Shown here one piece after another: positions 14,939-64,000 of a stretch of 64,000 nt of DNA. Both the position numbers and the translations under genes were made by a program. The first letter of the stretch is position 1, and each line of letters begins with the position of its first letter. Under the pieces are notes generated by a model that searched no databases, was not told the DNA's origin, and saw only the letters and a list, made by a program, of their open reading frames with translations. This stretch comes from Myxococcota bacterium (GTDB lineage Bacteria; Myxococcota; B64-G9): the NCBI GenBank assembly GCA_035453905.1, contig DAOTDZ010000014.1:86452-150451 (forward strand). The letters run 5' to 3'.

Positions 14939-14965
14939 CCCGCGCTGGACGTGGAGAGGGAAGGC

Positions 14966-16438
<1,473 letters not shown>

Positions 16439-16492
16439 AGAGCTTTCATACGCTGTCATTTCCCATCATACACCCACCGCCTCGGGGCGACT

Positions 16493-16575
16493 CCGCACCG
16501 GAAATAGATAACCAAACGATTTCAACGAGATAGTTTCTTTTTCAGGCCGGTCCCGCACCGGGCCCCTGCGCGTGC
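16493..16575 (+). promoter_or_regulatory. Putative upstream activating region (UAS) for an enhancer-binding protein, inside an AT-rich island
   Basis: The 9-mer CCGCACCGG occurs twice in direct orientation, at 16493-16501 and 16553-16561. The motif GCACC-N13-GCGTGC is also present, reminiscent of NtrC-type TGCACC...GGTGCA sites. A near-IHF-like ATCAAcgcaTTG lies between this region and the promoter. Confidence 0.3.
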
Positions 16576-16662
16576 GTTTTTCAGTCCCCACCTACCCCTC
16601 CATATCCATGAAAACTTTATTATTTCAATGCGTTGATCTGCCTCGAAGGTGCTCTTGACCCG

Positions 16663-16678
16663 TGGCATGTGCCTTGCT
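16663..16678 (+). promoter_or_regulatory. Sigma-54 (RpoN) -24/-12 promoter: TGGCAT-gtgcc-TTGCT
   Basis: This is an exact match to TGGCAY-N5-TTGCW. GG is at 16664-65 and GC at 16676-77. It sits about 80 bp upstream of ATG 16758, downstream of an NtrC-type activator gene and an AT-rich region that is unusual for this genome. Confidence 0.6.
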
Positions 16679-16757
16679 TGTGCCCCCGCTGCCGGTCCGG
16701 ACCCGAATTCGGGACGGGACCGCGAGGCCACGGGAATCGGAACCAAGGAGCTTCGTC

Positions 16758-48915: not shown

Positions 48916-49404
48916 GTGAGAGCAGCTCCCCTGGCGGGATTCTTCCTGGTGATGCTCCCTGGCCTGGCCCTGGCCGCTGATCCGGCGGCCGCACCGGTGC
49001 AGCAGCAGCACCGGCTGGTGACGCTCGAGCTCGACGGGCCAGCGTTGCGGGTCCTGGCCTCCCAGGTCGTCCCCCTGCCGTTGCCCAAGCGCCGGGGAGG
49101 GGAGGCGGTCGGCTCCGGCCACCCCTGGCGCGCCCGGCTGCTCGGCCCCGGAGGCGCGGTGCTGCACACCCTCGGCCTCGGCGATCCCACCGAGCTGCGC
49201 GTGGAGCACGCCGACGACGCGGGCCGGATCCGCGCCCAGCGCGTCCGCCGGGAGGGCCCGGTGGTGTTCTGCCTGCGCCTGCCGCTGACCGCAGGCCGGC
49301 TCGAGCTCCAGCGGCTCGATCCCGCCCGGCCGCGGGAGCGGCGGGCCCCGGAGGACGCCTGGCAGGGCGTCGGCGCGGTGGAGCTCCCGGGGGTGGCGCC
49401 GTGA
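48916..49404 (+). CDS. Hypothetical small secreted protein
   Basis: GTG start. The signal is LAGFFLVMLPGLALA. The stop overlaps the GTG start of the M64 gene as GTGA. Confidence 0.4.
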   Translation: MRAAPLAGFFLVMLPGLALAADPAAAPVQQQHRLVTLELDGPALRVLASQVVPLPLPKRRGGEAVGSGHPWRARLLGPGGAVLHTLGLGDPTELRVEHADDAGRIRAQRVRREGPVVFCLRLPLTAGRLELQRLDPARPRERRAPEDAWQGVGAVELPGVAP

Positions 49405-51953
49405 GCCGCCCGCGCGCGGCCCTGGCCGCCTGCCTGGTCAGCCTGGGCCTGGCGCTGTCCGCCGCGGCCTACGACGTGGAGACCGTGCAGACCTCCGGGG
49501 ACTCCGCCAACCGCATCGATCTGGTCATCCTGGGGGACGGCTACAGGGTCGAGGACCAGGCCAAGCTGACGAGCGACGTGCAGTCCTTCCTCACGCGCTT
49601 CTGGCAGCAGACCCCCTACGCGGAGTACCGCAACTTCTTCAACGTGAAGCTCATCCACGTCATCTCGAACGAGAACGGGGCGGACAACGGCTCGTACGGC
49701 GCGGTGCGCGACACGGCCCTGGGCGCCTACTACAACTGCTACAACATCGATCGCCTGATCTGCCTCGACACCTGGGCCGTGTACCAGGCGGCCAACGCGG
49801 ACGCGCCCGAGTGGGACTTCCTGTTCGTGATGGTGAACGATCCCAAATACGGGGGCTCCGGGGGCTCGATCTCGGTCTTCTCCGTGCACGCCCTGGCTGG
49901 AGACATCGCCATCCACGAGTTCGGGCACTCGTTCGGCGGGCTGGCCGACGAGTACGAGGACGCCTACCCGGGCTACCCGGGCTGCGGCTCGGACTGCCCG
50001 GAGCCCAACGTGACCACCCGGACGGTGCGCGAGGAGGTCAAGTGGAACCCGTGGATCGACGCGGCCACGCCGGTTCCCACGCCCGAGACCGGGACCTACT
50101 GGGACGCGGTGGGGGTGTTCGAGGGAGCCCGCTACCAGACCACGGGTGTCTTCCGCCCGAAGCAGGCCTGCTTCATGCGCCAGTACGGAGTCCCGTTCTG
50201 TGAGGTGTGCGAGGAGGCCCTGGTGCTGTCGGTCTACCAGCAGGTCTCGCCGCTCGACAGCGCCTCCCCGGCCGGCCCGGTCAGCCTCGGGAGCTGCGAC
50301 CTGGCCAGCTTCGAGGTCGCCTACCCGCGGCCGGTGCCGGACACCGTGGAGGTCACCTGGCGCGTGGACGGCCAGGTCGTCCAGACGGGTGGCGCGGGGT
50401 TCGAGCTGGACGCCTCCGGGCTGTCGATCGGCGCCCATCAGCTCGAGGCCGAGATCGCCGATCTGACTCCGCTGGTGCGAACCGACCCCTCGTCGCTCCT
50501 GGTGGAGCGCCAGATCTGGACGGTCCAGGTGACCGGGACGCCGGTCTGCCTCATCGGCGGGGAGTGCATCCCCGATGGCACGCTGAACCCCGCCAACCCC
50601 TGCGAGATCTGCCAGGCGGCGAGCCAGCCCGGCGCCTGGAGCCCGCTCTCCGGGGTGGCCTGCGGCGACGGCCTCTACTGCAACGGCGCGGAGGCATGCC
50701 AGGCCGGCGCCTGCCAGGCCGGCGCGGCGCCCTGCCAGGACGACGGTCTGGCCTGCACGCTCACCTGCGACGAGGCCGGGCAGCGCTGCAACCTGCCCCA
50801 GGCAGGCTGGTGCGCCATCGCCGGGGTGTGCAGGACGGCGGGCGAGGCCGAGCCCGGCAACCCCTGCCGCACCTGCCAGCCGGGCGTGGATCCCTCGGCC
50901 TGGGTCCCCGACGACAGCGCCACCTGCGGCGACGGGGAGTTCTGCGACGGCCCGGAGACCTGCCAGGGCGGCGTCTGCCAGGCCGGCGCGGCGCCCTGCC
51001 AGGACGACGGCCTGGCCTGCACGGACACCTGCGACGAGGCCGGGCAGCGCTGCGACGTGCCCCAGGCGGGCTGGTGTGCCATCGCCGGGGTGTGCGCGAC
51101 CGCCGGGGAGGCCGAGCCCGGGAACCCCTGCCGGACCTGCCAGCCCGGGCTGGACCCGCTGGCCTGGACGGCGGACGATGGCCGGGCCTGCGAGGACGGC
51201 CTCTACTGCAACGGCGCGGAGACCTGCCTGGCCGGCGCGTGCCAGGCCGGCGCGGCGCCCTGCCAGGACGACGGCCTGGCCTGCACGGACACCTGCGACG
51301 AGGCCGGGCAGCGCTGCGACGTGCCCCAGGCGGGCTGGTGTGCCATCGCCGGGGTGTGCGCGACCGCCGGGGAGGCCGAGCCCGGGAACCCCTGCCGGAC
51401 CTGCCAGCCCGGGCTGGACCCGCTCGCCTGGAGCCCGGACGACACGGCGGGCTGCGACGACGCGCGGCCCTGCACGACCAGCGACCATTGCCAGGCGGGC
51501 GCCTGCGTGGGCCAGCTCAGCCCGGGCTGCTGCACCGTGGCGGCCGACTGCGACGACGGGCTCGCCTGCACCCAGGACGCGTGCGACGCGGGCCAGAGCG
51601 CTTGCTCCAGCTCGCTGTCGGCCGGGGCCTGCCTGGTGGACGGCGTCTGCGCCCTCGCGGGAGAGGCCTCGCCGGGCAACGCCTGCCTGACCTGTCAGCC
51701 CGGCACGGCGCCGCGGGCCTGGACGTCGGCCGAGGGCGCGGCCTGCGACGATGGCGACCCGTGCACCGCGGGGGGCGCCTGCCTGGCGGGCGCCTGCGCG
51801 CCGGGTGAGCGCCTGTGCGACCCGAGTTGCCCCTGCGAGGAGCCCGCCATGAAGGGCGGCTGTGGGTGCGGGGCGGGGACGGGCCAGGCGCCGGGCGCCC
51901 TGCTGTCCGTGCTGCTCGGGTGGCTGTGGGTGCGGCGCCGGCCGCGGGCGTGA
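49401..51953 (+). CDS. M64-family (IgA-peptidase-like) zinc metallopeptidase fused to three 88-aa Cys-rich repeats, with a MYXO-CTERM sorting signal
   Basis: The signal peptide is present. The zinc site is HEFGHSFGGLADEY. Three 88-aa repeats have the form CGDGxYCNGAETC.AGACQAGAAPCQDDGLACTDTCDEAGQRCDVPQAGWCAIAGVC. The C-terminus GGCGCGAGTGQAPGALLSVLLGWLWVRRRPRA is a MYXO-CTERM tail. The antisense ORF 48840..51488 is rejected. Confidence 0.8.
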   Translation: MSRPRAALAACLVSLGLALSAAAYDVETVQTSGDSANRIDLVILGDGYRVEDQAKLTSDVQSFLTRFWQQTPYAEYRNFFNVKLIHVISNENGADNGSYGAVRDTALGAYYNCYNIDRLICLDTWAVYQAANADAPEWDFLFVMVNDPKYGGSGGSISVFSVHALAGDIAIHEFGHSFGGLADEYEDAYPGYPGCGSDCPEPNVTTRTVREEVKWNPWIDAATPVPTPETGTYWDAVGVFEGARYQTTGVFRPKQACFMRQYGVPFCEVCEEALVLSVYQQVSPLDSASPAGPVSLGSCDLASFEVAYPRPVPDTVEVTWRVDGQVVQTGGAGFELDASGLSIGAHQLEAEIADLTPLVRTDPSSLLVERQIWTVQVTGTPVCLIGGECIPDGTLNPANPCEICQAASQPGAWSPLSGVACGDGLYCNGAEACQAGACQAGAAPCQDDGLACTLTCDEAGQRCNLPQAGWCAIAGVCRTAGEAEPGNPCRTCQPGVDPSAWVPDDSATCGDGEFCDGPETCQGGVCQAGAAPCQDDGLACTDTCDEAGQRCDVPQAGWCAIAGVCATAGEAEPGNPCRTCQPGLDPLAWTADDGRACEDGLYCNGAETCLAGACQAGAAPCQDDGLACTDTCDEAGQRCDVPQAGWCAIAGVCATAGEAEPGNPCRTCQPGLDPLAWSPDDTAGCDDARPCTTSDHCQAGACVGQLSPGCCTVAADCDDGLACTQDACDAGQSACSSSLSAGACLVDGVCALAGEASPGNACLTCQPGTAPRAWTSAEGAACDDGDPCTAGGACLAGACAPGERLCDPSCPCEEPAMKGGCGCGAGTGQAPGALLSVLLGWLWVRRRPRA
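50650..51441. repeat. Three tandem 264-bp repeats inside the M64 gene; copies 2 and 3 share an identical stretch of more than 180 bp
   Basis: Direct comparison of 50976-51160 with 51240-51423 shows identical sequence. Copy 1 (about 50650-50913) is diverged. Confidence 0.75.
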
Positions 51954-52470: not shown

Positions 52471-52664
52471 AACAGCACCTGGCCAGGTTGAGGCGGACAT
52501 CGAGTCTTGTTTTCCTCCATCTGGTCGAATGCTAGTCCCCTCGGCCTCTTTCTGGCCCGGAATTTGCTTGGAAGTCGCCGAGGAATCGCTCAACGAAGAC
52601 ACGCCCTTGAAGAGGCAATCGATTCTGCCCGTCTTCTGGCACGGTCTTCTGGAGGAGCTCTCGG

Positions 52665-53480
52665 ATGGAAGCCTGCGCAACCCAACTCGGTGCTGCACCC
52701 AAGCTCGCGCCCCAGACCGGGGAGCCCCAGGTCCACATCGACCTCACCGATCCCCGCCAGCGGGCGCTGTACGACCGGCGCTACGGGCGGACGCTCCAGA
52801 GGCTTCGCTCCTGGCTGCGCCAGGACGACCACCACCGCGCCCGCCAGCTCGAGCGCGGGCTGGCCCGCCAGGGGCTGGCGCTTCGCGACCTGAAGGTCTT
52901 CGAGCTGGGCTTCGGCGCCGGTGAGCTCCTGCTGCGCTTCGAGCCGAGCTGCAGCCTGCACGGCTGTGATTCCTCCGAGGCCAGCGTGCTGGCGCTGGGG
53001 CACGACGCGCGCCTGGCGAGGTACCGCGAGCGCATGCTAGCCCTGTCGGCTCGGGACGGCGGGCCCGCGTATCCCTCCAGCGGCTACGACGTGGTCATCG
53101 CCTCGGACGGGCTGGAACCGCGGGCGCGCGCCGCGCAGACCCTTCTGAGCTTGCTCCGCCACACGCGGCCTGGCGGTCTGGGTGTGTTCTTCTTCGACGG
53201 CCAGGCGCACGATCTGGCCGCCTGCGCCCGCCTGCTGCGCGGCGCCGGCTGGGTGCTGCTCGAGGGGCAGGCGGGCAGCCGCCTCGGCGTCCGCGCCTGG
53301 GATCTGCGCGGCGCGGGCGCGCCGGGGCCGCTCGCGCGGCTCGGCGGGGCGGCGGATCGGGTGGCGGGCGCGCTCCTCGGGCTCGCGCCGGCGGGGCTGC
53401 GCCAGCTGTGCGAGTCCCCGCTGGCCGCCCTGCGCGTGCGCCCGTCCCGGCTGATGCTCGTGGCCCGGCGACCTGCCTGA
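52665..53480 (+). CDS. Class I SAM-dependent methyltransferase
   Basis: Motif I is VFELGFGAGELLL. The acidic motif is CDSSEA. Motif IV-like sequence is VVIASDGLE. Confidence 0.5.
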   Translation: MEACATQLGAAPKLAPQTGEPQVHIDLTDPRQRALYDRRYGRTLQRLRSWLRQDDHHRARQLERGLARQGLALRDLKVFELGFGAGELLLRFEPSCSLHGCDSSEASVLALGHDARLARYRERMLALSARDGGPAYPSSGYDVVIASDGLEPRARAAQTLLSLLRHTRPGGLGVFFFDGQAHDLAACARLLRGAGWVLLEGQAGSRLGVRAWDLRGAGAPGPLARLGGAADRVAGALLGLAPAGLRQLCESPLAALRVRPSRLMLVARRPA

Positions 53481-53532
53481 GCCGCGTTTCCGTTCACCCG
53501 CCCCGGCCGATCCTGGTAGGATGCCTGCCGGC

Positions 53533-54150
53533 ATGCGCTCCGTCCTTCCACTTCCCGTGTCCTGCGCGGCCGCGTGCCTGGCGCTGGCGGGTCTGCTCGC
53601 GGGCGGGCTCCAGGCGCAGCCCGCTGTCCCGCCCGCGAAGGCGGACCCGCGCCTCGAGCGCATGCTGGCCTGGGCCGAGGCCCGGCTCGGCACGGAGTAC
53701 CGCTTCGGCGGGCGGCTCACCCGGCGGCTGCCCGGGCTCGACTGCCTCGGTCTGATCTTCCTGGCCCACGCCCGCGCCGTGGGGGGCTCCTGGCGCGACT
53801 ACTCCGTGGTGCCCAGCCGGATGCTGCGCCTGCGCCAACTCGGGCCGGAGGTCGGCCGCTGGGCCTGGGACGAGGCGCCGCCGCCCTGCCCCGGAGACCT
53901 GCGGCGCGGAGACGTGCTGATCCTCTCCTGGCCCTGGGAGATCGAGGACGAGGTCCTCCAGCGCACGCCCGCGGGCCTGGCGCTGCGCAGCGCCCACGTG
54001 GGGCTGTACCTGGGCGCGGGGCGCTGCCTGCACGCCAGCCCCTTCGCTGGGCGCGTGGTCATCGAGCCCCTGGAGGCCCTGCTCCGGGAGCAGGGCTACC
54101 TCGGCATGATCGCCGTCCGCCCCTTCGGGGCGAGCACGCACGGGAGGTGA
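53533..54150 (+). CDS. NlpC/P60 (C40) family peptidase, secreted
   Basis: The signal peptide is present. YRFGG and the catalytic Cys in GLDCLGLIF are followed by HVGLYLGAGRCLHAS (His). Confidence 0.7.
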   Translation: MRSVLPLPVSCAAACLALAGLLAGGLQAQPAVPPAKADPRLERMLAWAEARLGTEYRFGGRLTRRLPGLDCLGLIFLAHARAVGGSWRDYSVVPSRMLRLRQLGPEVGRWAWDEAPPPCPGDLRRGDVLILSWPWEIEDEVLQRTPAGLALRSAHVGLYLGAGRCLHASPFAGRVVIEPLEALLREQGYLGMIAVRPFGASTHGR

Positions 54151-54156
54151 GGGAGC

Positions 54157-55614
54157 ATGCAGCGGCTGGGGTGCCTGACGGTCGGTCTGCTGGGTGTGTG
54201 GAGCCTGGGCATGCGGGTCGAGGACGTGCCCGATCCCATGCGCGCGGCCGGGAGCTTCGTCATGGACGCGGCCCGGGTGCTGGACCCGGGCACGGCCGGG
54301 GAGCTCGACGAGACCTGCCGCAGGCTCGAGCGGGACACGGGCGTCGAGCTGGCTGTGGTGACCGTGGACCGGCTGGAGGGTCTGGCGGTCGAGGTGTATG
54401 CCCGCCGCCTGTTCGACCGGCTGGGCCTGGGCAAGAGCTGGCGGGACAACGGCGTGCTGGTGCTCCTGTCCCGGGACGATCGCGAGATCCGCATCGAGGT
54501 CGGGGCGGGGCTGCTGCAGGTACTGACGGACGAGAAGGCCGGGGCGCTGCTGGACCAGCACGCCATCCCGCGCTTCAAGGCGGGCCAGACCTCGGCCGGG
54601 CTCCTCGATCTCGCGCGAGGCCTGGCTGTCGCGCTCGGTCAGGCCCGCGCGCAGGGGCTCATCCGGGCCGAGGCCGGAGAGGGCCCGCCCGCCGGCGCCG
54701 ATGGGGGTCCAGCCGAGGCGGCGCACGCGCAGCCCGCGGCCCCGGTCCAGGCGCCGCCCGGACCGTCGGCCGCGGGCGGGTCGCCCTCGCCAGAGACCGC
54801 GGAGGCGCCGCGGGACTACTGGGCGGAGGCGCGGCGAGAAGAGCAGATGCTGGGCGGGCTGGCCCTGGGCGCGGGCATGGCGGGCTTCAGCCTGCTCGGC
54901 GCGGGGCTGCTGTCGCTGATCGTCCTGCTGCGCCGCACGCGGGCCGGCAAGAAGAAGACGCTGGGGCGCGGGGTGCTCTTCCCCGTGCTGCTGTGGTGCG
55001 GCGCCGTGGCCGGGGGGATCGCGGTCGGAGCGGAGACGGACGACGCGACCTGGCCGGTGGGGGTCGGCTTGGGCGCGGGCGGGCTGTTCACCACGCTGCA
55101 CTTCCTGCTGCGCCGCCGCCTGCGGCGCCACATGGAGAGCTACCGGCGGCCGTGCGGCAAGTGCAGGGCGCGCATGGACCTGGTGGACGAGCAGGCCGAC
55201 GACGCCCTGCTGAGCACCGAGGAGCAGGCCGAGGAGCGCATCGGGGGCGCGGACTGGGAGCTCTGGAACTGCCCCGGCTGCGGCGCCCAGGAGAAGATCG
55301 AGGTGAGCCTCGGCGGCGCCTCGCGCTGCGGCAAGTGCAAGCGGCGCACCCTGATCGTCAAGCGCACGACCCTGCGCTCCGCCACCTACGATCACGGCGG
55401 CGAGGTGCGGGTGGACGAGACCTGCCACAACCCGAACTGCCGCCACCACTCCTCGCACACGCACTCCACCCCCCGGTTGACTCGCCCGAGCCCGTCCTCG
55501 GGCGGCTCCCGCTCGTCCTCGAGCTCCTCCTCGCGATCCTCCTCCTCGTCTTCGTCCTCGGGTGGCTTCGGAGGAGGCCGCTCTGGCGGCGGGGGCGCCT
55601 CGCGCAAGTGGTGA
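54157..55614 (+). CDS. TPM-domain (TLP18.3/Psb32/MOLO-1) protein with TM helices, a C-terminal zinc-ribbon region and a Gly/Ser-rich tail
   Basis: TPM motifs are VLDPGTAGELDETCRRLERDTGVELAVVTV and DNGVLVLLSRDDREIRIEVGAGL. Zinc-ribbon Cys pairs are CGKCRARM...CPGCGAQ...CGKCKRR. The tail is SSGGFGGGRSGGGG. Confidence 0.75.
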   Translation: MQRLGCLTVGLLGVWSLGMRVEDVPDPMRAAGSFVMDAARVLDPGTAGELDETCRRLERDTGVELAVVTVDRLEGLAVEVYARRLFDRLGLGKSWRDNGVLVLLSRDDREIRIEVGAGLLQVLTDEKAGALLDQHAIPRFKAGQTSAGLLDLARGLAVALGQARAQGLIRAEAGEGPPAGADGGPAEAAHAQPAAPVQAPPGPSAAGGSPSPETAEAPRDYWAEARREEQMLGGLALGAGMAGFSLLGAGLLSLIVLLRRTRAGKKKTLGRGVLFPVLLWCGAVAGGIAVGAETDDATWPVGVGLGAGGLFTTLHFLLRRRLRRHMESYRRPCGKCRARMDLVDEQADDALLSTEEQAEERIGGADWELWNCPGCGAQEKIEVSLGGASRCGKCKRRTLIVKRTTLRSATYDHGGEVRVDETCHNPNCRHHSSHTHSTPRLTRPSPSSGGSRSSSSSSSRSSSSSSSSGGFGGGRSGGGGASRKW

Positions 55615-55715
55615 GGCGGCCCGCCGCTGGGCGTGACCGGAATCACAGCGCCTGGCTGAATTCGGGCCATGCTTCCGTCGTCTCGTGCGGTGAGCTCTTA
55701 CGAGGGAGGAGACCC

Positions 55716-56744
55716 ATGCGCTCGATCCTGCCTGCCATCGTGGTGACCTGCTCGTGCCTGGCCTGGTCCGCGGGGGGCTGCGGTGGCTCCGAGGACCCGC
55801 TGCCGTTGCCGGAGGTGGAGGTGACCCTGGCGAACCTGTGCGATGAGATGGCCGAGGTGAGCTGCTACAACATGTTCACCTGCTGCACCGGCGAGCAGAT
55901 CGAGGACGTCCTCGGCATCGCCATCTCGCTCGAGCCCGCGGACTGCCGCCGGGACATGGCGCTGCTCTGCCAGGAGCGCTTCGCCCCGATCCTGTGGGCG
56001 GCCCAGAAGGGCTCGGTGGGCGTCGACACCCTGGCGATCGGCGGGTGCCTGCAGTTGATGCTGGTGCGGGGCGCCTGCTTCGAGCACGTGAGCACCATTC
56101 CCTGGGAGGAGGCCTGCGAGGCGGACCAGGTGGTGGGCACGGTCCAGCCGGGCGGCGCCTGCGTGTACGGGTGGGAGTGCGCCAACGGCGGCTTCTGCGC
56201 TCCGGACGCCCGCTGCGTGGCCCTGCCGGGCCCGGGGCAGGAGTGCGACGACGTGTGCGCCGCGGGCCTGTTCTGCAACCGGCGGACCTACCGCTGCGAG
56301 AACCAGCTCGGCTCGGGCCAGGCCTGCAACGACTCCTCCTTCTGCCAGGCGGGCCTGTTCTGCAAGTTCGACGGCGAGGGCGCGGGCGCCTGCACCTCCC
56401 CGCGCGCCGTGGGGCAGCCCTGCGAGGGCGACCAGGACTGCGCCACCAGCTACTGCCAGCCGGGCGTGTGCGCCGGGAGCACCCTCGAGTGCTTCGAGAA
56501 CTCGGACTGCCCGGGCCAGTGCGTGGGCTCGGACTCATCCTGCTTCAGCGACTACGACTGCGGCAGCCGCTGCTCCATCTCGCACGACCCCTGCTACTCG
56601 GACTACGACTGCACCGAGGGCGGGTCGTGCGTGCCCGACACCTGCGACCAGCAGGGCTGCTCCGGGCAGCCGGTGTGCGCGGAGCGCTGGCTGATCCTGG
56701 ACTACTGCGAGGGCACCCTGGGGATGTTCCTGGGCGAGGACTGA
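55716..56744 (+). CDS. Cys-rich secreted lipoprotein, hypothetical
   Basis: GGGAGGAGACCC precedes the ATG. The signal is AIVVTCSCLAWSAGGCGG. The protein has about 50 cysteines in about 340 aa, in CxxGxFC-type spacing. Confidence 0.6.
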   Translation: MRSILPAIVVTCSCLAWSAGGCGGSEDPLPLPEVEVTLANLCDEMAEVSCYNMFTCCTGEQIEDVLGIAISLEPADCRRDMALLCQERFAPILWAAQKGSVGVDTLAIGGCLQLMLVRGACFEHVSTIPWEEACEADQVVGTVQPGGACVYGWECANGGFCAPDARCVALPGPGQECDDVCAAGLFCNRRTYRCENQLGSGQACNDSSFCQAGLFCKFDGEGAGACTSPRAVGQPCEGDQDCATSYCQPGVCAGSTLECFENSDCPGQCVGSDSSCFSDYDCGSRCSISHDPCYSDYDCTEGGSCVPDTCDQQGCSGQPVCAERWLILDYCEGTLGMFLGED

Positions 56745-56757
56745 GCGCGACGGCGGC

Positions 56758-58281
56758 TCAGTACTCGAACAACCTGAGCTCGGCCAGCTCCTGCGGGTCC
56801 TCGCTCGGGCCCAGCGGGGAGAAGGCCTGGCGGGTGCGGGCGCCCCGGTCGTTGTCGTAGACCACGAGATCGAAGGCGAACACCTCTCCGCTCGCGGGCG
56901 GCGCCTCGCTGTAGCCCAGCTCCGTCCAGGGGATGCGCGCCAGGAAGGTCCAGCCCTGGCCCTCGCGGCAGTCGTCCTCGGGGCGCTGGCCGGAGAGCTC
57001 GAAGCGGAAGTCGACCCCGACCGGCTGCCAGGCCCCGCCGCCCAGGGCGTCGAAGGCGGTGCTGCCCGACAGGTCGAACAGGGCGCGGCGGGACACGCGC
57101 TCCCCGCCCGCGCTCGCCCGGATCAGGGTCAACTCCACGGCGTCATCGCGCTGGATGGCCTGGCGATCGCCCTCGCCGCGCTGCTGGGCGCAGAAGGTCT
57201 CGTCGCGGCTGCTCACGGCCAGCCCCAGCGCCGTCGGATCCCACAGCGCGCGGACCTCGACCGCCTCCTGCCCGGGCGCCGGGCGCAGGGCCAGCGGCGC
57301 GGCGCCGCTGGAGAGGTAGGCCCCGGGCTCCTCGGCGAAGGCGGCGCTGTCCCGGGGGACCGCCCGGGCGTCGAGCAGGCGGGTCTTGCGGAACACCTCG
57401 CCGGCCAGGGCCGGGTCGTAGGCCGGCCCGCCGGCCCAGGCGCCGGGCCAGCGGGTGAGCGCCAGGGCGCCCTGGCCGTCCACCTGGCGGAGCTCCAGCC
57501 CGAGCCGCATGCGCCGGTTCGGCCCGGGCCCGTCGTTGGCCTCGAGCTGGTCGATCGGCACGGCGGCGAAGTAGCGCGCGCCGTCCTCCAGTGCGGTGAA
57601 GTCGTGCAGCACGCTCACCCCGAGCGGGTTCCACAGCTCCTGGTAGCGCTCGGGGCCCAGGGCCAGGACCAGATCGTCTGCGCCGCGCTCGTCCTCCAGG
57701 CTGTCGGCCAGCCCGTCGAGCGCCACCACCAGCGCGTCGCCGGTCCACAGATCCTCGCCGTGCGTGGCGCCGGCCCCCCGCAGGCGGACGTCGAGGAACA
57801 GGTGGCGCCGGTTGGCGGCCAGGCTGACCTCGGCCGGCCCGAGCCGGAGGCTCCACGGCAGCCCCTCGGGCTCGAGTCCGGCCGCGGGATCCGCCAGGGC
57901 GGGACCGGCGTGGACCACGGCGGCCTCCACCCGCGTGAGGAACAGGCTCGCCAGCAGGGGGCCTTCGCCCTCGCGCAGCTCGGGGCTGAAGGCCCAGGCC
58001 CGGGGCTGGCCCTGCGCGGTGAGCCCGAGCAGCTCGAGGCGGAAGGGGCCGGCGGGGTGGATCGGCCCCAGGCGCGTGCTGCCACCGCCGCCCGGCGCGC
58101 GGAGCCCGGGCTCGACGGCGCCGTCCGGCGTGACCAGGCCGAGCGACAGCTCCGTCCAGCCGTCCATGGCGCCCTCGCCCACCGGCACCAGGTTGACGAA
58201 CAGCTCGTCCGCCGCCTGGCTGGCGCAGCCGGCGAGCCACGCCGCGGACAGGCCGAGCAGGGCGGTCAGGCGCAGGCGCAT
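56758..58281 (-). CDS. Hypothetical lipoprotein (possible carbohydrate-binding/DOMON-like C-terminal half)
   Basis: The lipobox is AAWLAGCAS. The C-terminal EVFAFDLVVYDND resembles CBM9/DOMON-like folds. This is a tentative call. Confidence 0.55.
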   Translation of the reverse strand: MRLRLTALLGLSAAWLAGCASQAADELFVNLVPVGEGAMDGWTELSLGLVTPDGAVEPGLRAPGGGGSTRLGPIHPAGPFRLELLGLTAQGQPRAWAFSPELREGEGPLLASLFLTRVEAAVVHAGPALADPAAGLEPEGLPWSLRLGPAEVSLAANRRHLFLDVRLRGAGATHGEDLWTGDALVVALDGLADSLEDERGADDLVLALGPERYQELWNPLGVSVLHDFTALEDGARYFAAVPIDQLEANDGPGPNRRMRLGLELRQVDGQGALALTRWPGAWAGGPAYDPALAGEVFRKTRLLDARAVPRDSAAFAEEPGAYLSSGAAPLALRPAPGQEAVEVRALWDPTALGLAVSSRDETFCAQQRGEGDRQAIQRDDAVELTLIRASAGGERVSRRALFDLSGSTAFDALGGGAWQPVGVDFRFELSGQRPEDDCREGQGWTFLARIPWTELGYSEAPPASGEVFAFDLVVYDNDRGARTRQAFSPLGPSEDPQELAELRLFEY

Positions 58282-58286
58282 GCCCT

Positions 58287-59651
58287 TCAGCGGCCCTCCA
58301 GGCCGTGCTTCTTCAGCAGATCCTTGAGGTGGTGCCGATCGAGCCGGGCCTCGCGGGCGGCGGCCGACAGGTTGCCGCGGTGGCGGGCCAGGAGATCGAG
58401 CAGGTAGGCGCGCTCGAAGGCGTCCACCACCCGCCCCTTGGCGTCCTTGAAGGCGGCGCCCCCCTGGCGGGCCGTGCCCTCCCCGATGGCGCGCTCGAGC
58501 TCGGCCACGAAGGCGCGCGGCTCGAACGGGCGGCCGCTGGCGGCGCCGAGCAGCGCCGCCGCGCGATCGACCGCGTTGCGCAGCTCACGGATGTTCCCCG
58601 GCCAGGGGTAGGCCTGCAGCGCGGTCAGCGCCCCGGCCGGCAGCGCCTCGGCCCGCCAGCCCTCGCGCTCGCCAGCCGCCCGGACCAGGAAGTGCGCCAG
58701 GAGCTGGGGCAGATCCTCGCTCCGCTCGCGCAGCGGGGGCAGGCGCAGGGACACCACCGCCAGGCGGTAGAACAGGTCCTCACGGAAGCGCCCCTCGGCC
58801 ACCTCGCGGCGCAGCTCGCGGTGGGTGGCCGCGATCAGCCGGACGTCCACCTCCACGGGGCGATCCGCGCCAACCGGCCGGATCTGCTTGCGCTCCAGCG
58901 CCCGCAGCAGCTTGGGCTGCAGCTCGGCCGCGAGCTCACCGACCTCGTCGAGCAGCAGGGTGCCGCCGCGGGCCTGCTCGAAGCAGCCCGCCCGGTCGGC
59001 CTGGGCGCCGGTGAAGGCCCCCTTGCGGTGGCCGAACAGCTCGCTCTCTGCGAGATCGCGGGGGATGGCGGTGCAGTCCAACACCACGAAGGGGGCGTCC
59101 CGGCGGGGGCTGGCCCGGTGGATGGCCTCGGCCAGCGCCTCCTTGCCGGTGCCCGTCTCGCCCTCCAGCAGCACGGTGACCTCGCTGCCGGCCACCTCCG
59201 CGGCGGTGGCGAAGATCTCGCGCATGCGGCGGCTCTGCCCGAGCACCCCGTGGAAGCTGGACGCCTCGAGGGGCGCCGGGCGCAGCCCGCGCTCCTCCGG
59301 CACGATCTTGAGCGCGGTCTGCCCGAGCCGCACCAGCGCGCCCGGGGCCAGCACCAGCTCCCGCACCCTCGAGCCCTCGTAGAAGGTGCCGTTGGTGCTG
59401 CCCGGGTCCTGGAGCCACACCCCTCCGGGCGCCAGCTTGGCCAGCAGGTGGCGACGGGAGACCGTCCCGTCGACCAGCACCAGCTCGCAGGCGGGATCGG
59501 TGCCGATCTGGATGGGCTCGGGCCCCACGGCGCAGGCCCGGCCCGCGTCCGGTCCCTCGACCACCAGCAGGCGCAGCGCGCCCAGGTCGCGGCGCACGTC
59601 CTCGCTCGGCCCGGCTAGCAGGCTGGTGGTCCTGGAGTCGTCCTGGCTCAT
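58287..59651 (-). CDS. Sigma-54-dependent transcriptional activator with an N-terminal FHA domain
   Basis: The FHA domain reads IQIGTDPACELVLVDGTVSRRHLLAKLAPGGVWLQDPGSTNGTF. The AAA+ module has GETGTGKE, the GAFTGA loop and WPGNIREL. A C-terminal Fis-type HTH is present. Confidence 0.9.
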   Translation of the reverse strand: MSQDDSRTTSLLAGPSEDVRRDLGALRLLVVEGPDAGRACAVGPEPIQIGTDPACELVLVDGTVSRRHLLAKLAPGGVWLQDPGSTNGTFYEGSRVRELVLAPGALVRLGQTALKIVPEERGLRPAPLEASSFHGVLGQSRRMREIFATAAEVAGSEVTVLLEGETGTGKEALAEAIHRASPRRDAPFVVLDCTAIPRDLAESELFGHRKGAFTGAQADRAGCFEQARGGTLLLDEVGELAAELQPKLLRALERKQIRPVGADRPVEVDVRLIAATHRELRREVAEGRFREDLFYRLAVVSLRLPPLRERSEDLPQLLAHFLVRAAGEREGWRAEALPAGALTALQAYPWPGNIRELRNAVDRAAALLGAASGRPFEPRAFVAELERAIGEGTARQGGAAFKDAKGRVVDAFERAYLLDLLARHRGNLSAAAREARLDRHHLKDLLKKHGLEGR

Positions 59652-59751
59652 GCGGCGCCATTCTACCCGCCGCGAGCCGGCCTGGGAAGCTTCAACCGGG
59701 CGCTTCCGCCGGGCGCCCCCTTGCTGGTAGACTCCCGCCCGGAGAGCTTCC

Positions 59752-60660
59752 TTGAGGTGGACGAAGCACAGCGCGCGGGCGGCGGTCCTCCTGGGCCTGG
59801 CCTTGCTCGCCGGGGCCGCGGCGCCCGGGCGGGCGGACGGGCTCGACCAGGCCGCCGCGGACGCCGCCGCCCTGGAGACCCGCCGGTTCGTGGCCGAGGC
59901 CCGCGAGCGCTACCGCGCCTTCGAGCTGCCGGCCGCGCTCGAGCGGCTGGAGGCGGCGCGCGCCCGCTGGGCCCAGGCCTGCCCGGCCCTGGACGAGGAG
60001 CTCGCCAGCGCGCCCTTCCTGCTCGAGGGGCAGGTGCGCTTCGCCGCGGGCGAGCGCGCCCGGGCGCTGGAGGCCTTCGGCCAGGCGGTGGCCGTGAGCC
60101 CCGCGCTCGCGCCCGATCCGCGCGAGTGGTCGCCCAAGCTGGTGGCGGCCTTCGCCGAGGCGCGCGCGGGCCGGGAGGCGCTGCCCCAGGCCCGGCTCTC
60201 GCCGCTTCGGCTCTCGCCCGCTGGTGCGGAGCTCGCGCTGGACGGCCGCGCGCTGGGCGCGCCGCCGGGCCCGCTGTCGCTCCCGCCGGGCGACCACTGC
60301 CTGGTCGCGCGCGCCCCCGGCCACCGGCCGGGCGCGCTGGTGCTGCGCCTGGCGCCGGGGGAGGAGCGCGCCGTGGAGCTCGCGCTCGTGGCCGAGGCCG
60401 GGCCGGAGCCTGTGGCGCTGCCCGCCGCCGCGCCCGAGCCGGCGCCCGGGGCCGCCCTGCCGGCCCTGGAGCCGCGCGCGTTGGTCGCGCCCGAGCCGGC
60501 GCCCGCGCCGGTGGAGACCGTCTGGTACGAACGCTGGTGGGTCTGGACGCTGGTCGGCGCCGCCGTGCTGGGCGGCGCGGCCACGGCCCTGGGCGTGCTG
60601 CTCGCCCCCGGCGAGGGCGATCCCGGGCTGCAGGTGGTCATCACCCGCCCGCCGAGGTAG
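59752..60660 (+). CDS. Secreted PEGA-domain protein with a C-terminal TM helix
   Basis: TTG start. The signal is AAVLLGLALLAGAAAPGRA. The PEGA-like beta domain is LRLSPAGAELALDGRALGAPPGPLSLPPGDHCLVARAPG. The TM helix is WWVWTLVGAAVLGGAATALGVLLA. Confidence 0.5.
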   Translation: MRWTKHSARAAVLLGLALLAGAAAPGRADGLDQAAADAAALETRRFVAEARERYRAFELPAALERLEAARARWAQACPALDEELASAPFLLEGQVRFAAGERARALEAFGQAVAVSPALAPDPREWSPKLVAAFAEARAGREALPQARLSPLRLSPAGAELALDGRALGAPPGPLSLPPGDHCLVARAPGHRPGALVLRLAPGEERAVELALVAEAGPEPVALPAAAPEPAPGAALPALEPRALVAPEPAPAPVETVWYERWWVWTLVGAAVLGGAATALGVLLAPGEGDPGLQVVITRPPR

Positions 60661-60663
60661 GCC

Positions 60664-62220
60664 GTGCCGGGCTGCTACAGGCTCATCGGCCGCATCGGGG
60701 CCGGAGGGATGGCCGAGGTCTTCGAGGGGCTGGCCCTGGGGGAGGCCGGCTTCGAGAAGCGGGTGGCCATCAAGCGCATCCTGCCCTCGCTGGCGCGGGA
60801 TCCGGCCCTCACCGGCTTGCTGGTCGAGGAGGCCCGGGTCGCCAGCCGGCTGGCCCACGGCAACCTGGTGCAGGTCCTCGACCTGGGCCGCGCCGGGGGT
60901 GACTACTACCTGGTGATGGAGCTCGTGGACGGGGCGGATCTGGCCAGCCTGCAGCGGCACCTGCCCGGGCTCGGCCTCGAGCTCCCACCCGGCCTGGCGG
61001 TGTGGATCTGCCGGCAGGTGCTGGCGGGCCTGCACTTCGTGCACCAGCTCGGCGACGCGGACGGCCAGCCGCTGCACCTGGTGCACCGCGACGTCAGCCC
61101 GGGCAACATCCTGGTCTCGCGCGCCGGCCAGGTGAAGCTGACCGACTTCGGCATCGTGAAGGCCCGCGACCGGGCCATCCACACCGAGGCCGGCCTGATC
61201 CGGGGCAAGGCCGCCTACATGCCGCCCGAGCAGGCCGCCGGGGAGCCCCTCGATCAGCGCGCGGATCTCTTCTCCCTGGGCGTGGTGCTGCACGAGCTGC
61301 TGGTCGGGCGAGCGCTCTTCGCCGGGGACTCGCCGGCGGCGGTGCTGCGGCGGGTGGTGTCCCTCGAGCGCGAGCCCGCCCCGGCGCCCTCCAGCCTGCG
61401 GCCCGGGCTGCCCGCGACGCTGGACGCGGTGGTCGGGTGCGCGCTGGCACCCTGCCCCGCGGGGCGCTACCCCAGCGCCCGGGCGTTCGACGAGGCGCTG
61501 GAGGCGGCCGCCCTGGAGGCCGGCCTGCGCGGCTCGGCCGCGGAGCTCGAGGACTGGCTGGCGCGCGCCATGCCGCCCGCCCGGCTCGAGCCGCTGCCGG
61601 CGGGCGCGGGCTGCATCGAGCTCGGGCCCGCGTCCGCCGCGCCGGTCGGGACCCTCCCGCTCGCCCGGGCGGTCGCGCCCATCTCCGCCCCCGGGCGCGC
61701 CGGCGGGCGAGGGGCCTGGCTCGGGCTCGGGGTGGTGCTGCTCGCGGGCGCGGCCGCCGTGGGCTGGAGGTTCCTGTCCCCGGAGGAGGGCGCGCCCGTG
61801 GCGCGGCCCGGCGCCGTGGCTGCCCCCGCGGCGCCCCCGACCTCCCCCGACCGCGGAGCCGATCTGGCGGCGCCCGGCCTGCGCCAGGGGCGAGGCTGCC
61901 TGCACGCCTGCGCGGGCGCGCAGCCCGCCCCGGTCCGGCCCGGGGCCAAGCCCGGGCGGCCGGCGCCTGGCCCGGTGACGCCCGCGGGGGAGGGCACCCT
62001 GTTCCTCAACTCCGAGCCGTGGGCGCGCATCCTGGTGGACGGCCGGGACACGGGCGCCACCACGCCCACGGTCGAGGGGCTGCGCCTGCGGGCCGGCCGC
62101 CACTCCATCACCCTCGTCAACCCGGAGCTGGAGCTGCGCCTGGACGCCGAGGTCGAGCTCGACCGGGACGAGGTCCTCAAGCGCTTCTTCGATCTGCGCA
62201 GGGATGGCCAGCAGCGCTGA
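60664..62220 (+). CDS. Ser/Thr protein kinase with a TM segment and a C-terminal PEGA domain
   Basis: GTG start is 4 nt after the previous stop. Kinase motifs are GAGGMAEVF, VAIKRI, HRDVSPGNIL, DFG and PPEQ. The PEGA domain is TLFLNSEPWARILVDGRDTGATTPTVEGLRLRAGRHSITLVNPE. Confidence 0.85.
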   Translation: MPGCYRLIGRIGAGGMAEVFEGLALGEAGFEKRVAIKRILPSLARDPALTGLLVEEARVASRLAHGNLVQVLDLGRAGGDYYLVMELVDGADLASLQRHLPGLGLELPPGLAVWICRQVLAGLHFVHQLGDADGQPLHLVHRDVSPGNILVSRAGQVKLTDFGIVKARDRAIHTEAGLIRGKAAYMPPEQAAGEPLDQRADLFSLGVVLHELLVGRALFAGDSPAAVLRRVVSLEREPAPAPSSLRPGLPATLDAVVGCALAPCPAGRYPSARAFDEALEAAALEAGLRGSAAELEDWLARAMPPARLEPLPAGAGCIELGPASAAPVGTLPLARAVAPISAPGRAGGRGAWLGLGVVLLAGAAAVGWRFLSPEEGAPVARPGAVAAPAAPPTSPDRGADLAAPGLRQGRGCLHACAGAQPAPVRPGAKPGRPAPGPVTPAGEGTLFLNSEPWARILVDGRDTGATTPTVEGLRLRAGRHSITLVNPELELRLDAEVELDRDEVLKRFFDLRRDGQQR

Positions 62221-62247
62221 GCCGGGCGGGCCTGGGTCGGGGGATCC

Positions 62248-63921
62248 TCAGTCGATGCCGTCGTCCATGAACAGGGTGCAGACCGAGCCGTCGGCCCGGG
62301 GGCAGGTGAAGTACATGGTGATGGAGGCCATGATCGGGTTGACCGTGCCGGTGCAGCCGCTGGCGGTGTAGATGGTCTCGTGATCGATGCAGCCGCCCGC
62401 GCCCAGCACGTCCGCCGCGACCTGCTCGAAGGCCAGGCTGCACCCGGTCTGCGCCACCGGGATCGGCAGCTCGGGCGGAGCCGTCCCGGCCAGGCAGTCG
62501 CCGCTCACCCAGTAGGAGCGGGCCACCTGCGGGCAGGACACCGCGTCGCAACCCTCGCTGCCCACGCAGTCCCCCGGGCAGTTGCAGCGGGTCTCGCCCT
62601 GGCCGCAGGTCCCGTCCCCGCAGCGGGCGCACACGAAGCAGGGGCAGTTGACGCCCATGCACGCCAGGGTCACGTCGTCCAGGACGGTGAAGGGGATGGG
62701 GGTCAGGCCGGCGCAGCACTTCCCCTCCGTGTCCGGGTCCTCGAACTGCCCGCCCTCGGCCACGCAGCCCGGCTCGACGCACAGGCCGGTCTGGGGGTCG
62801 CACTGGCCGTCGCCGCACACGCCGTCCATCAGGCAGGCCTGGAAGATGAAGCAAGAGGCGTCACAGCCCTCGCAGCCGCAGCCCTCGGCGCCGTACGGTC
62901 CCGGGCAGGTGCAGTCGCAGATGCCGGTGCAGGCGGCCGTGCACATGGGCGAGGCGTCGCAGGTGGCCGCGTCCGGGAGCCCGGAGCAGTTCGTGTTGCG
63001 GCAGTCCACCACGCACTGACCGTCCGCGGGCTGGCACACGAAGCCCTCGGCGCAGCCGGCCGGGGAGGCGTGGCACAGGCAGGGATCGGCGAACCACTCG
63101 ATGGGGTACCACCTGCCGTCCTGGCCGCAGCTGTAGCAGCCCGGCTCCTCGGCCAGGTGGTTGCCGCAGGCGCAGGGCTGGGTCTCCCCGGGCACGCACT
63201 CGGGCACCGGGCAGTCCGCCCCGCAGGTGCAGAAGTTCTCCTCGGGGCCGCACACGTCGTCCCCGCAGGGCAGGCACACGTAGCACAGGCAGTCGAACGA
63301 GTCGCAGGTGAGCTCGCCCTGGACCACCATGGGCATGCTGTCGGTCATCTTCTCCAGCCCCTCGCAGCAGCGCTGGGCGCCGTCGAAGTCCACGAAGCGG
63401 TCGCCGAGCCCGTGGCAGTCGCTCTGGCACTGGAGCTCCGGCGAGCCGACGCACTCCCAGCGCCCGTCCGCGCCGCAGGTGCACCAGGGCACGCTGGTGC
63501 CGTCCGCGCAGGCGTAAGGGCGCACACCCCCGGGCACGCACTCGCCGCAGTCTTCGGCGCAGATGCAGGGGTCCTCGCCCGCGCCGCAGATCCCGTCGCC
63601 GCAGGCCACGCACACGGTCACCAGGGCGTCGAAGGAGACGCAGCCCCCGCCAGCCGGATCGTAGGGGGTGTACTCGCGGGCGGCCAGGCCCTCGCAGCAG
63701 GGGGTCTGGGCCGGGGTGAGGTTCACCGCGCGCTCTCCGGCCTCGACGCAGTTCGGCTCGCACACGCAGTGCCCGGCCGCCTCGTCGCACACCGAGGGGC
63801 AGTGCTGGATGGTCATGCACGGCTCGTCCGTCTGGCAGGGCACCTTGCACTCGCAGCGCCGCTCCGCGTTGCAGAAGGCCGGGCAGTTCAGCACCTGGCA
63901 GTCCTCGTCATCCGCGCACAT
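62248..63921 (-). CDS. Extremely Cys-rich secreted protein (about 16 % Cys), hypothetical; the N-terminus may extend beyond the listed start
   Basis: CxC/CxxC patterns are periodic (CGDGICG, CGDDVCG, CGDGTCG, CGDGQCD). No signal peptide is seen from the listed Met, so the true start may be upstream of 63921 or off the window. Confidence 0.45.
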   Translation of the reverse strand: MCADDEDCQVLNCPAFCNAERRCECKVPCQTDEPCMTIQHCPSVCDEAAGHCVCEPNCVEAGERAVNLTPAQTPCCEGLAAREYTPYDPAGGGCVSFDALVTVCVACGDGICGAGEDPCICAEDCGECVPGGVRPYACADGTSVPWCTCGADGRWECVGSPELQCQSDCHGLGDRFVDFDGAQRCCEGLEKMTDSMPMVVQGELTCDSFDCLCYVCLPCGDDVCGPEENFCTCGADCPVPECVPGETQPCACGNHLAEEPGCYSCGQDGRWYPIEWFADPCLCHASPAGCAEGFVCQPADGQCVVDCRNTNCSGLPDAATCDASPMCTAACTGICDCTCPGPYGAEGCGCEGCDASCFIFQACLMDGVCGDGQCDPQTGLCVEPGCVAEGGQFEDPDTEGKCCAGLTPIPFTVLDDVTLACMGVNCPCFVCARCGDGTCGQGETRCNCPGDCVGSEGCDAVSCPQVARSYWVSGDCLAGTAPPELPIPVAQTGCSLAFEQVAADVLGAGGCIDHETIYTASGCTGTVNPIMASITMYFTCPRADGSVCTLFMDDGID

Positions 63922-64000
63922 GTCGACGCAGTGGCACTGCTCGTCCGAGCCGCAGTAAGCCTGGCAGTTGAGCGCCTGGCAGTCCGCGGTTCCGCGGCAG

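Follow-up and report, generated by a model that had tools for sequence, protein, structure and literature searches.

A conserved five-gene module pairing a PEGA-domain Ser/Thr kinase with an FHA-type sigma-54 activator, and its candidate target promoter, in uncultured Myxococcota

Enhancer-binding proteins that carry an FHA domain were reportedly described in Myxococcus xanthus by Jelsbak, Givskov and Kaiser in 2005 (PNAS 102:3010, listed among the references of PMC12288465), with a proposed input from Ser/Thr kinases. To our knowledge, the kinase link to these FHA-type activators has been proposed and not demonstrated, and we know of no work establishing which kinase acts on which activator, via which residues and at which promoter. 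Our literature search found no report of a pair made up of a kinase and an FHA-type bacterial enhancer-binding protein (bEBP). Here we describe a locus with such a pair in a window of 64,000 nucleotides (contig DAOTDZ010000014.1, positions 86,452 to 150,451) from the metagenome-assembled genome (MAG) of an uncultured Myxococcota bacterium with about 76% GC. Like the M. xanthus FHA-type activators, the activator encoded here combines an FHA domain, a sigma-54 AAA+ domain and a putative Fis-type helix-turn-helix (HTH), comes from the same phylum and has the same proposed Ser/Thr kinase input. Unlike them, it is encoded next to a candidate kinase, a membrane partner and a periplasmic lipoprotein, with a candidate target promoter alongside; none of the named M. 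xanthus proteins was established as its ortholog, and a developmental role is not inferable. A preliminary description of this DNA had called a kinase-to-activator route of this kind known in Myxococcus development, which holds for the FHA-type activators and overstates the kinase link.

Parts of the locus also resemble other described systems. Like GarA and OdhI, which are switched by PknB and PknG and whose FHA domains are the best structure matches, the activator joins a disordered N-terminal tail carrying a Thr to an FHA domain. GarA's own FHA domain is the binding partner of its N-terminal Thr once this is phosphorylated. GarA is a small metabolic regulator without AAA+ or DNA-binding domain, however, and it keeps the canonical Gly-Arg where the activator family studied here has Thr, Ser or Ala; by analogy, the activator might recognise its own tail in the same way. 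The AAA+ core, the GAFTGA motif and the geometry of an upstream activator site with a -24/-12 element are shared with NtrC-family bEBPs such as NtrC1, ZraR, FlrC and FleQ, but these have a receiver domain and His-Asp phosphorylation, whereas the input to the FHA domain here would be Ser/Thr phosphorylation. Like the PknB-type PASTA kinases, the kinase of this locus has a cytoplasmic Hanks-type domain, a juxtamembrane linker, one transmembrane helix and an extracytoplasmic sensor. PASTA kinases carry a juxtamembrane phospho-Thr, and FHA partners are recruited through phosphothreonine (pThr). The kinase described here differs in having a single PEGA domain instead of PASTA repeats, a Ser in place of the catalytic-loop Lys, and apparent co-transcription with a second PEGA membrane protein. 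Our literature search turned up no relevant work on PEGA kinases.

As shown in Table 1, the genes of the activator, the PEGA partner protein and the kinase, which the preliminary description had assigned to this region, were all recovered in place and on the expected strands. The activator and PEGA genes are divergent and separated by a 100-bp gap. The kinase gene starts 3 nt past the stop codon of the PEGA gene, so that the two genes look like one operon, as had been supposed; the spacing between 59752-60660 and 60664-62220 bears this out. The unit exceeds 58287-62220 on both sides, adding 56758-58281 and the stretch from 62248 to the window end. On the first side, a gene for a CBM9-like lipoprotein begins 5 nt after the stop codon of the bEBP gene, and activator and CBM9-like lipoprotein genes form a co-transcribed, divergent operon with a sigma-70-type promoter. 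On the other side, a gene for a dockerin/Cys-rich lipoprotein is convergent on the kinase gene. The explanation of the whole locus that we lean towards, with modest confidence, is a route in which the kinase would act through pThr and the FHA domain on the activator, which in turn would drive sigma-54-dependent transcription of the dockerin gene.

We compared loci holding relatives of the activator, loci found via the CBM9-like protein and one locus (L022) found via the kinase. The activators, clustered at 85% identity, fell into 12 lineages, 10 of them informative. The PEGA gene divergent from the bEBP and CBM9-like genes was present with all bEBP orthologs that had visible flanks, except in the rearranged locus L010. 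An orthologous kinase gene directly follows the PEGA gene in 7 of the 10 lineages (the window, L003, L004/L009, the L007 group, L020, L021 and L025/L027). Identity over the full length is 43-51% for these kinases, except that of L021 (57-67% in two segments). The dockerin/Cys-rich gene lies past the kinase gene in six of the seven kinase lineages, and the contig of the seventh ends first. The closest relatives of the activator are 56-62% identical, after which identity drops to about 50%; all close relatives come from uncultured MAGs. This comparison of neighbourhoods, a check that had been suggested, therefore disposes of the objection that the pair is not conserved, the kinase and activator genes being adjacent in 7/10 informative lineages. 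The link between kinase and activator is frequent, not obligatory, and the five genes are, by sequence comparison, a putative signalling module conserved in a small clade of uncultured Myxococcota.

Adjacency in genomes rich in kinases and activators might arise by chance, with another activator serving the dockerin promoter. In favour of this explanation, myxobacteria have expanded sets of kinases and enhancer-binding proteins (PMC8538405), and the window itself contains a second kinase and a second bEBP. However, the same five-gene order recurs where the bEBPs are only 57-65% identical and the flanking genes are wholly different. The promoter and upstream site described below are kept across genomes of 46-74% GC, and the near-invariance of the bEBP's HTH runs parallel to the conservation of the upstream site. 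We consider chance adjacency very improbable.

The dockerin gene is the apparent output of the locus. The preliminary description had pointed to the region upstream of 59752 as the place for RpoN -24/-12 elements. A search there with a position weight matrix (PWM; TGGCAC-N5-TTGCW) gave a best site of 1.5 bits, a score equalled or exceeded at 1001 positions of the window; this candidate (CGGGCGCCCCCTTGCT, within 59652-59751) was ruled out as a sigma-54 promoter. A scan of the window for the sigma-54 consensus with three mismatches gave 215 matches against 233 expected and was uninformative. In front of the dockerin gene, by contrast with that region, 7/7 loci (the window contig, L003, L004, L009, L007, L020 and L022; Table 1) have a GG-N10-GC element 45-55 nt ahead of the start codon. 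These sites hold the top one to three PWM ranks on both strands of each 12-21 kb locus. In an alignment of five of the loci, whose genomes have 46-74% GC, 8 of the 24 invariant columns fall in the TGG/TGCT block, at a mean column identity of 57%. Other sigma-54 parts in the window, namely a second bEBP gene and a sigma-54-type promoter of 19.9 bits, argue that the organism uses sigma-54. The dockerin gene is very probably sigma-54-dependent.

Upstream of the -24 element stands an imperfect palindrome, TGG-N7/8-ACCCnCCA, at a distance of 76-87 nt in six loci and of 149 nt in L022; two copies are present in each of L007 and L020. The region upstream of the dockerin gene thus has, as read from the sequence, the classical geometry of an enhancer-binding-protein site. 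Elsewhere in the window, the upstream-site motif gave 18 matches at up to two mismatches, all with exactly two, against 16.6 expected, and no second local target was found. In the kinase-less loci L001 and L005, motif matches to the upstream site or to a sigma-54 site were at chance level only. It is probable that the FHA activator serves the dockerin promoter, with the palindrome as its candidate site. Whether an Arg/Gly difference in the HTH tracks the presence of the dockerin gene was also considered and dropped, the pattern not being clean, as L003 carries Gln. A separate element, TGGCACGAT (TCTGGCACGAT on the strand of the PEGA gene), is conserved in both L001 (6877-7000) and L005 (6875-7000); its GG-GC spacing is 11 nt, not 10, and by its sequence it is not a canonical sigma-54 promoter. 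In L022 (1218-9472), which has both the sigma-54 site and the upstream palindrome at its dockerin-like gene, a PilZ-AMIN gene is divergent instead of an activator.

The open reading frame (ORF) of the Cys-rich protein, 62248-63921(-), is open to the window end. Sequence past this end came from L013, a copy of the window's own contig with 2 mismatches over 15,714 nt. The full gene lies at L013 5272-7404, with its start at window-equivalent 64380, and encodes 710 aa with a lipoprotein-type signal peptide and 99 cysteines. A type I dockerin match (PF00404, 32.6 bits, cut-off 22.9) covers aa 36-81, a segment outside the window, and dockerin matches above or near the cut-off were found in three further orthologs. 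For the CBM9-like lipoprotein, the window protein itself has no Pfam match. One ortholog matches CBM9_1 (E 6e-13), the family profile matches the Thermotoga CBM9 structure 1i82 (E 2.4e-4), and a modest AlphaFold2 (AF2) model (predicted local distance difference test, pLDDT, 65) aligns in Foldseek with the CBM9 structures 1i82 and 7nwn at TMt 0.66-0.70. Profile and fold therefore support a CBM9 fold for this co-transcribed 507-aa lipoprotein, which would make it a carbohydrate-binding module. A family search with a four-sequence alignment returned five loci in 185,579 species genomes and seven in a metagenome collection, so the family is rare.

The activator matches Sigma54_activat (PF00158) with 226 bits, AAA_lid_14 with 62, FHA (PF00498) with 44 (cut-off 20.7) and Yop-YscD_cpl with 60. 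Of the architecture given in the preliminary description (FHA, AAA+ and HTH), the first two parts are borne out by these matches, whereas the HTH_8 match, at 19.3 bits, is under the cut-off of 22. The C-terminus is nonetheless among the best conserved parts of the ortholog alignment and helical in the AF2 model, and PF02954 is assigned in some orthologs. The AF2 model has a pLDDT of 91.8, and its AAA+ domain aligns with FleQ, FlrC and NtrC1 at a template modelling score of about 0.88 and 40-47% identity. Among 18 orthologs, the GAFTGA loop does not vary at G211, F213, T214, G215 and A216, and conservation at A212 is at least 90%. By its sequence features, the activator belongs to the sigma-54 enhancer-binding family, with a weak HTH profile score as the only shortfall. 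The layout of its sigma-70-like promoter also occurs, as TTGACA/TTGCAA-N17-TAGGAT, in L001, L003, L005, L007 and L010 (just upstream of position 7001). The sigma-70-like elements of the activator genes end 7-10 nt before the start codon, a spacing that suggests leaderless or near-leaderless activator mRNAs.

The FHA domain is a beta-sandwich in the AF2 model, with pLDDT above 95. Most of its expected pThr pocket is in place: S65, H68, S85, N87 and G88 do not vary among 117 Myxococcota FHA activators, the Ser-Arg-x-His and Ser-x-Asn-Gly motifs are invariant across the activator orthologs, and R66 is conserved. In the same 117 proteins, aa 51 (59499-59501) and aa 66 (59454-59456) co-vary. An Arg at position 51 goes with Gly, Thr or Ala at position 66 in 20/22 activators, and any other residue at position 51 goes with Arg at position 66 in about 90 of 95. 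This co-variation argues for a phosphate contact relocated between loops and not for a dead pocket, and the phosphate-binding arginine appears to have changed place, leaving the Gly-Arg loop for the Ser-Arg loop.

Ahead of the FHA domain, T9 is invariant in 18/18 activator orthologs, and the residue at +3 is Leu or Ile in all of them. The T-x-x-[L/I] sequence is a classical type of FHA ligand, preferred by many FHA domains. Across the 117 Myxococcota FHA-bEBPs, the T9 column holds Thr in 90 and the +3 column Leu, Ile or Val in 111, and T..[LIV] stands ahead of the FHA core in 105 of 115. Residues 1-15 of the activator have pLDDT below 50 in the AF2 model, so the tail is predicted to be disordered and accessible. 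As a test of docking by this tail, the model was set aside, the tail being merely of low confidence and the model uninformative on binding. Both the T-x-x-[L/I] motif of the N-terminus and the relocated arginine seem to be general among Myxococcota FHA activators.

Like the activator, the kinase carries such a motif where an FHA domain could dock. Its best PDB match is PknB (E 6e-38), and it is closest to PknB and PknA. In the juxtamembrane linker, T330 is Thr in 15/15 kinase orthologs and the +3 residue is Leu or Ile in 15/15, while neighbouring linker columns are 27-50% conserved. For the extracytoplasmic PEGA domain attributed to the kinase, the C-terminal match lies exactly at the cut-off, the region is strongly conserved among orthologs and several of these carry PF08308. 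Residues M16, A17, E18, V19, K37, E56, D143, N148, D161, F162, G163, E189 and R268 are invariant in six orthologs, a set that includes the VAIK Lys, the alpha-C Glu, the HRD Asp, the catalytic Asn, DFG, the APE Glu and the subdomain XI Arg. H141-R142-D143 is present, as are the glycines of the G-loop wherever the gene call covers them (that of L007 is truncated).

The PEGA partner protein matches PEGA (PF08308) with 18.7 bits, just under the cut-off of 20.8, and 7/8 of its orthologs match, with a best E of 8.6e-9. It had been taken for a freely secreted protein. It does have a signal peptide, but also a C-terminal transmembrane helix followed by a 17-residue tail, and is membrane-anchored. The tail motif h-h-h-T-[RKH]-P is found in 8/8 kinase-linked partners (the window, L003, L004, L007, L009, L020, L021 and L022), while in the two kinase-less loci the tail reads AVVSWQ, without Thr. 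Across the wider WYxxWWFW family, the Thr occurs in only about half of the tails.

Several observations weigh against the proposed route. In the FHA domain, the canonical arginine of the Gly-Arg loop is replaced, by T51 in the window and by Thr, Ser or Ala in 18/18 orthologs, and a YscD-type model, which stands for domains that do not bind pThr, outscores the FHA model (60 vs 44 bits). In the kinase, the catalytic-loop Lys is Ser (HRDVSPGN), and our literature search yielded no work on whether HRDVSPxN kinases are active and no paper that mentions HRDVSP. The catalytic-loop Lys and the Gly-Arg arginine being absent, both proteins count as divergent within their families. The 12 clusters come from metagenomes, and the lineages are few and related to one another. 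The sister lineages L001 and L005 keep the bEBP, the PEGA partner and the CBM9-like gene without kinase or dockerin gene, having a 910-aa fn3 protein in place of both, and L022 has no bEBP next to its PEGA partner, kinase and dockerin-like genes. All sigma-54 scores come from a PWM built on consensus frequencies and not from a curated matrix, and the -24/-12 element of the window contig, which is the weakest of the set (11.5 bits), lies outside the window. Phosphorylation and binding are, at every step, our inference, as are the direction in which regulation runs and what the signal is.

The Ser in the catalytic loop might mark a pseudokinase scaffold, that is, a catalytically weak or dead kinase that relays a conformational signal from its PEGA domain, since the Lys it replaces contacts the gamma-phosphate. 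All other catalytic residues and the activation-loop Thr are kept and invariant, however, and the Ser is common to 106/120 of the nearest kinase homologs, which argues for a stable family trait and not for decay. RIO-type kinases have a Ser at this position, yet are active. Of pseudokinase residues, which the preliminary description had named as a way in which its proposal could fail, this one exchange is the only instance; pseudokinase status is not indicated by the sequence, and we regard the scaffold as improbable.

Alternatively, kinase and activator may belong to a shared envelope or matrix process without being a direct kinase-substrate pair. The FHA domain would then be phospho-independent and serve regulation or oligomerisation, or would read the pThr of another protein, and the kinase would act elsewhere, for example on the tail Thr of the PEGA partner. 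The missing canonical arginine in every activator ortholog and the higher score of the Yop-YscD_cpl model agree with this, as do the core of bEBP, PEGA and CBM9-like genes that persists kinase-less in L001 and L005 and the PEGA, kinase and dockerin genes that persist in L022 with no bEBP beside them. The tail Thr, present with the kinase in eight of eight partners and in 0/2 without it, would fit a substrate of this kind. Against it stand the invariance of the other residues of the pThr pocket, from which the arginine is apparently relocated and not lost, and the two invariant T-x-x-[L/I] motifs at the places expected for a docking site and a self-ligand. The L007 partner, moreover, ends two residues after its tail Thr and so has no +3 residue, and half of the tails in the wider family are without Thr; for both reasons the tail Thr was kept as a minor alternative FHA ligand only. 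Overall, a shared process without a direct pair seems to us unlikely.

We therefore return to direct control of the activator by the kinase through pThr and the FHA domain, which we hold to be somewhat the better supported reading. The route from kinase to FHA-type bEBP that had been put forward from the gene order gains from the conserved adjacency, the intact kinase residues and the T-x-x-[L/I] motifs, and loses by the absence of the canonical FHA arginine. In this route, the sensor operon and the activator operon would each be expressed from sigma-70-type promoters. The sensors facing the periplasm would be the bitopic PEGA protein, with its one C-terminal transmembrane helix, and the PEGA domain of the Hanks-type kinase. 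An envelope or extracellular cue, possibly related to glycan or matrix, would act on the PEGA and CBM9-like periplasmic parts and turn the kinase on. The kinase would autophosphorylate the activation-loop T174 and the juxtamembrane T330 (T-x-x-L), and pT330 would recruit the FHA domain of the activator. The kinase could then phosphorylate T9 (T-x-x-L) in the disordered N-terminal tail. Engagement of pT9 by an FHA domain, either in cis, following GarA/OdhI, or in trans, following Chk2, might alter the assembly state of the AAA+ ring, and the activator at TGGGG-N8-CCCCA would remodel sigma-54 RNA polymerase at the dockerin promoter. That T9, T330 and the other named threonines are the actual sites is a tentative assignment, more doubtful than the control itself. 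Gene content, synteny, conservation of domains and residues, and conservation of promoter and upstream site are directly established.

If true, the switch may extend to FHA-type sigma-54 activators in general, and results obtained here would carry over to the larger family, since the N-terminal motif and the relocated arginine appear general in Myxococcota. Such a general switch would consist of docking at a juxtamembrane pT-x-x-[L/I] of the kinase, phosphorylation of an N-terminal T-x-x-[L/I] of the activator, its reading by an FHA domain with relocated arginine, and AAA+ ring assembly, and the locus would be the first self-contained circuit from kinase through FHA activator to sigma-54 with all parts identifiable from sequence. 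We regard this wider proposal as speculative and rather doubtful. Specialists will not be surprised to meet genes for a kinase and an FHA protein side by side in a myxobacterium; what makes the locus valuable is a compact, fully specified circuit on which a proposal open since 2005 could be tested. The module offers as candidates a kinase with docking T330, an acceptor T9, and a binding site with a sigma-54 promoter before a single neighbour gene. With kinase, sites and promoter all specified, reconstitution with purified proteins or in a reporter strain is possible although the organisms are uncultured. The dockerin/Cys-rich output and the CBM9-like and PEGA periplasmic parts point to sensing at the cell surface or in the matrix.

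Table 1. Features of the module in window coordinates, with the -24/-12 elements and upstream sites of the dockerin genes. Functional roles given as candidate or putative are predictions.
Feature	Position	Strand	Sequence or motif	Basis or remark
CBM9-like lipoprotein, 507 aa	56758..58281	-	lipobox LAGC	ortholog, profile and fold matches
FHA-type sigma-54 enhancer-binding protein, 454 aa	58287..59651	-		Pfam and AF2 model
Putative C-terminal Fis-type HTH region	58308..58454	-		near-invariant; helical in model
HTH recognition segment	58314-58361	-	AAREARLDRHHLKDLL	
AAA+ sigma-54 interaction domain	58548..59243	-		Pfam, ortholog alignment
Walker B	58935-58958	-	DEVGE	invariant in orthologs
GAFTGA loop, aa 211-216	59004-59021	-	GAFTGA	18-ortholog alignment
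Walker A	59139-59162	-	GETGTGKE	invariant in orthologs
FHA domain, aa 19-122	59286..59597	-		GarA/OdhI FHA domains are the best PDB sequence matches (GarA FHA, E 3e-9)
Candidate phospho-acceptor and FHA self-ligand, T9-x-x-L12	59616..59630	-	T-T-S-L-L	ortholog conservation
Sigma-70-like promoter of bEBP operon	59660..59688	-	TTCCCA-N17-TAGAAT	3' end 8 nt before start codon
PEGA partner protein, 302 aa	59752..60660	+		signal peptide, helical N-domain, PEGA domain, transmembrane helix, cytoplasmic tail
PEGA domain of partner	60214-60384	+		
Transmembrane helix of partner (aa 267-285) with preceding motif	60523-60606	+	WYxxWWVW	
Cytoplasmic tail of partner	60634-60657	+	VVITRPPR	tail 17 residues long
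Hanks-type Ser/Thr kinase with C-terminal extracytoplasmic PEGA domain, 518 aa	60664..62220	+		Pkinase 112 bits
Catalytic loop, Ser for canonical Lys	61084..61107	+	HRDVSPGN	S145 invariant in 6 orthologs
Activation loop, T174 aligned with PknB T171	61180..61194	+	HTEAG	T174 invariant
Juxtamembrane candidate pT-x-x-[L/I] docking site for the FHA domain	61648..61662	+	G-T330-L-P-L333	15 orthologs
Transmembrane helix of kinase	61714..61776	+		hydropathy analysis
PEGA domain of kinase, aa 444-512	61993..62199	+		PEGA 20.8 bits, equal to cut-off
Dockerin/Cys-rich lipoprotein gene, 3' part	62248..64000	-		full length from L013
Dockerin -24/-12 element, window contig	L013 5204-5219; window-equivalent 64433-64448		TGGTCTGCTTCCTGCT	11.5 bits
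Candidate upstream site, window contig (TGGGG-N8-CCCCA)	window-equivalent 64527-64545		CTGGAGGCCGCACCCCCCA	
Dockerin -24/-12 element, L003			TGGCACGTTATTTGCT	18.7 bits
Upstream palindrome, L003			TGGGGAGTCTACCCCCCA	
Dockerin -24/-12 element, L004			TGGCGCGAATCTTGCT	14.1 bits
Dockerin -24/-12 element, L009			TGGCGCGGTTCTTGCT	14.2 bits
Dockerin -24/-12 element, L007			TGGCACGGTATGTGCT	13.7 bits
Dockerin -24/-12 element, L020			TGGCACGGTATGTGCT	13.6 bits
Dockerin -24/-12 element, L022			TGGCACAGGTCATGCA	14.1 bits

No terminators or RNA families were found in 56000-64000. In the rearranged locus L010, a sigma-54-like site, GGGCATGGCGCTTGCT at 9084-9099(+) with 15.0 bits, lies 26 nt before the gene of a 723-aa protein with a signal-peptide-like N-terminus, which directly follows the activator and a cyclase gene.

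On the other side of the CBM9-like gene, the operon 52665-56744(+) converges on it and encodes a methyltransferase, an NlpC-P60 protein, a TPM protein and a Cys-rich protein of 342 aa. A sigma-54-like site, TGGCCCGGAATTTGCT at 52553-52568(+) with 14.4 bits, lies about 97 nt upstream within an AT-rich gap. In L004 and L009, the same convergent slot is taken by a different operon (189 aa, PIG-L, MFS), which is also led by a sigma-54-like site. The 342-aa protein has no Pfam match at E <=0.001 and marginal EB/Dickkopf-like matches at E about 0.02. The window encodes several apparently exported Cys-rich proteins, at 49401-51953(+), 55716-56744(+) and 62248-64000(-), the set including a Peptidase_M64 protein with Cys-rich C-terminal repeats as well as the dockerin/Cys-rich protein.

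The top sigma-54-type site of the window, TGGCATGTGCCTTGCT at 16663-16678(+) with 19.9 bits, lies directly 3' of an NtrC-type activator gene, 14951-16438(+), whose product has a response regulator receiver, Sigma54_activat and HTH_8. It sits 80 nt upstream of a gene with Response_reg and GCV_H domains, 16758-18359(+), and the region 14951-18359 looks like a second, classical sigma-54 circuit. The window also contains a 2165-aa ORF at 7788-14285(-) with ASH/HYDIN Ig-like and STIG1-like domain matches, and a second Hanks-type kinase gene at 39709-41271(+).

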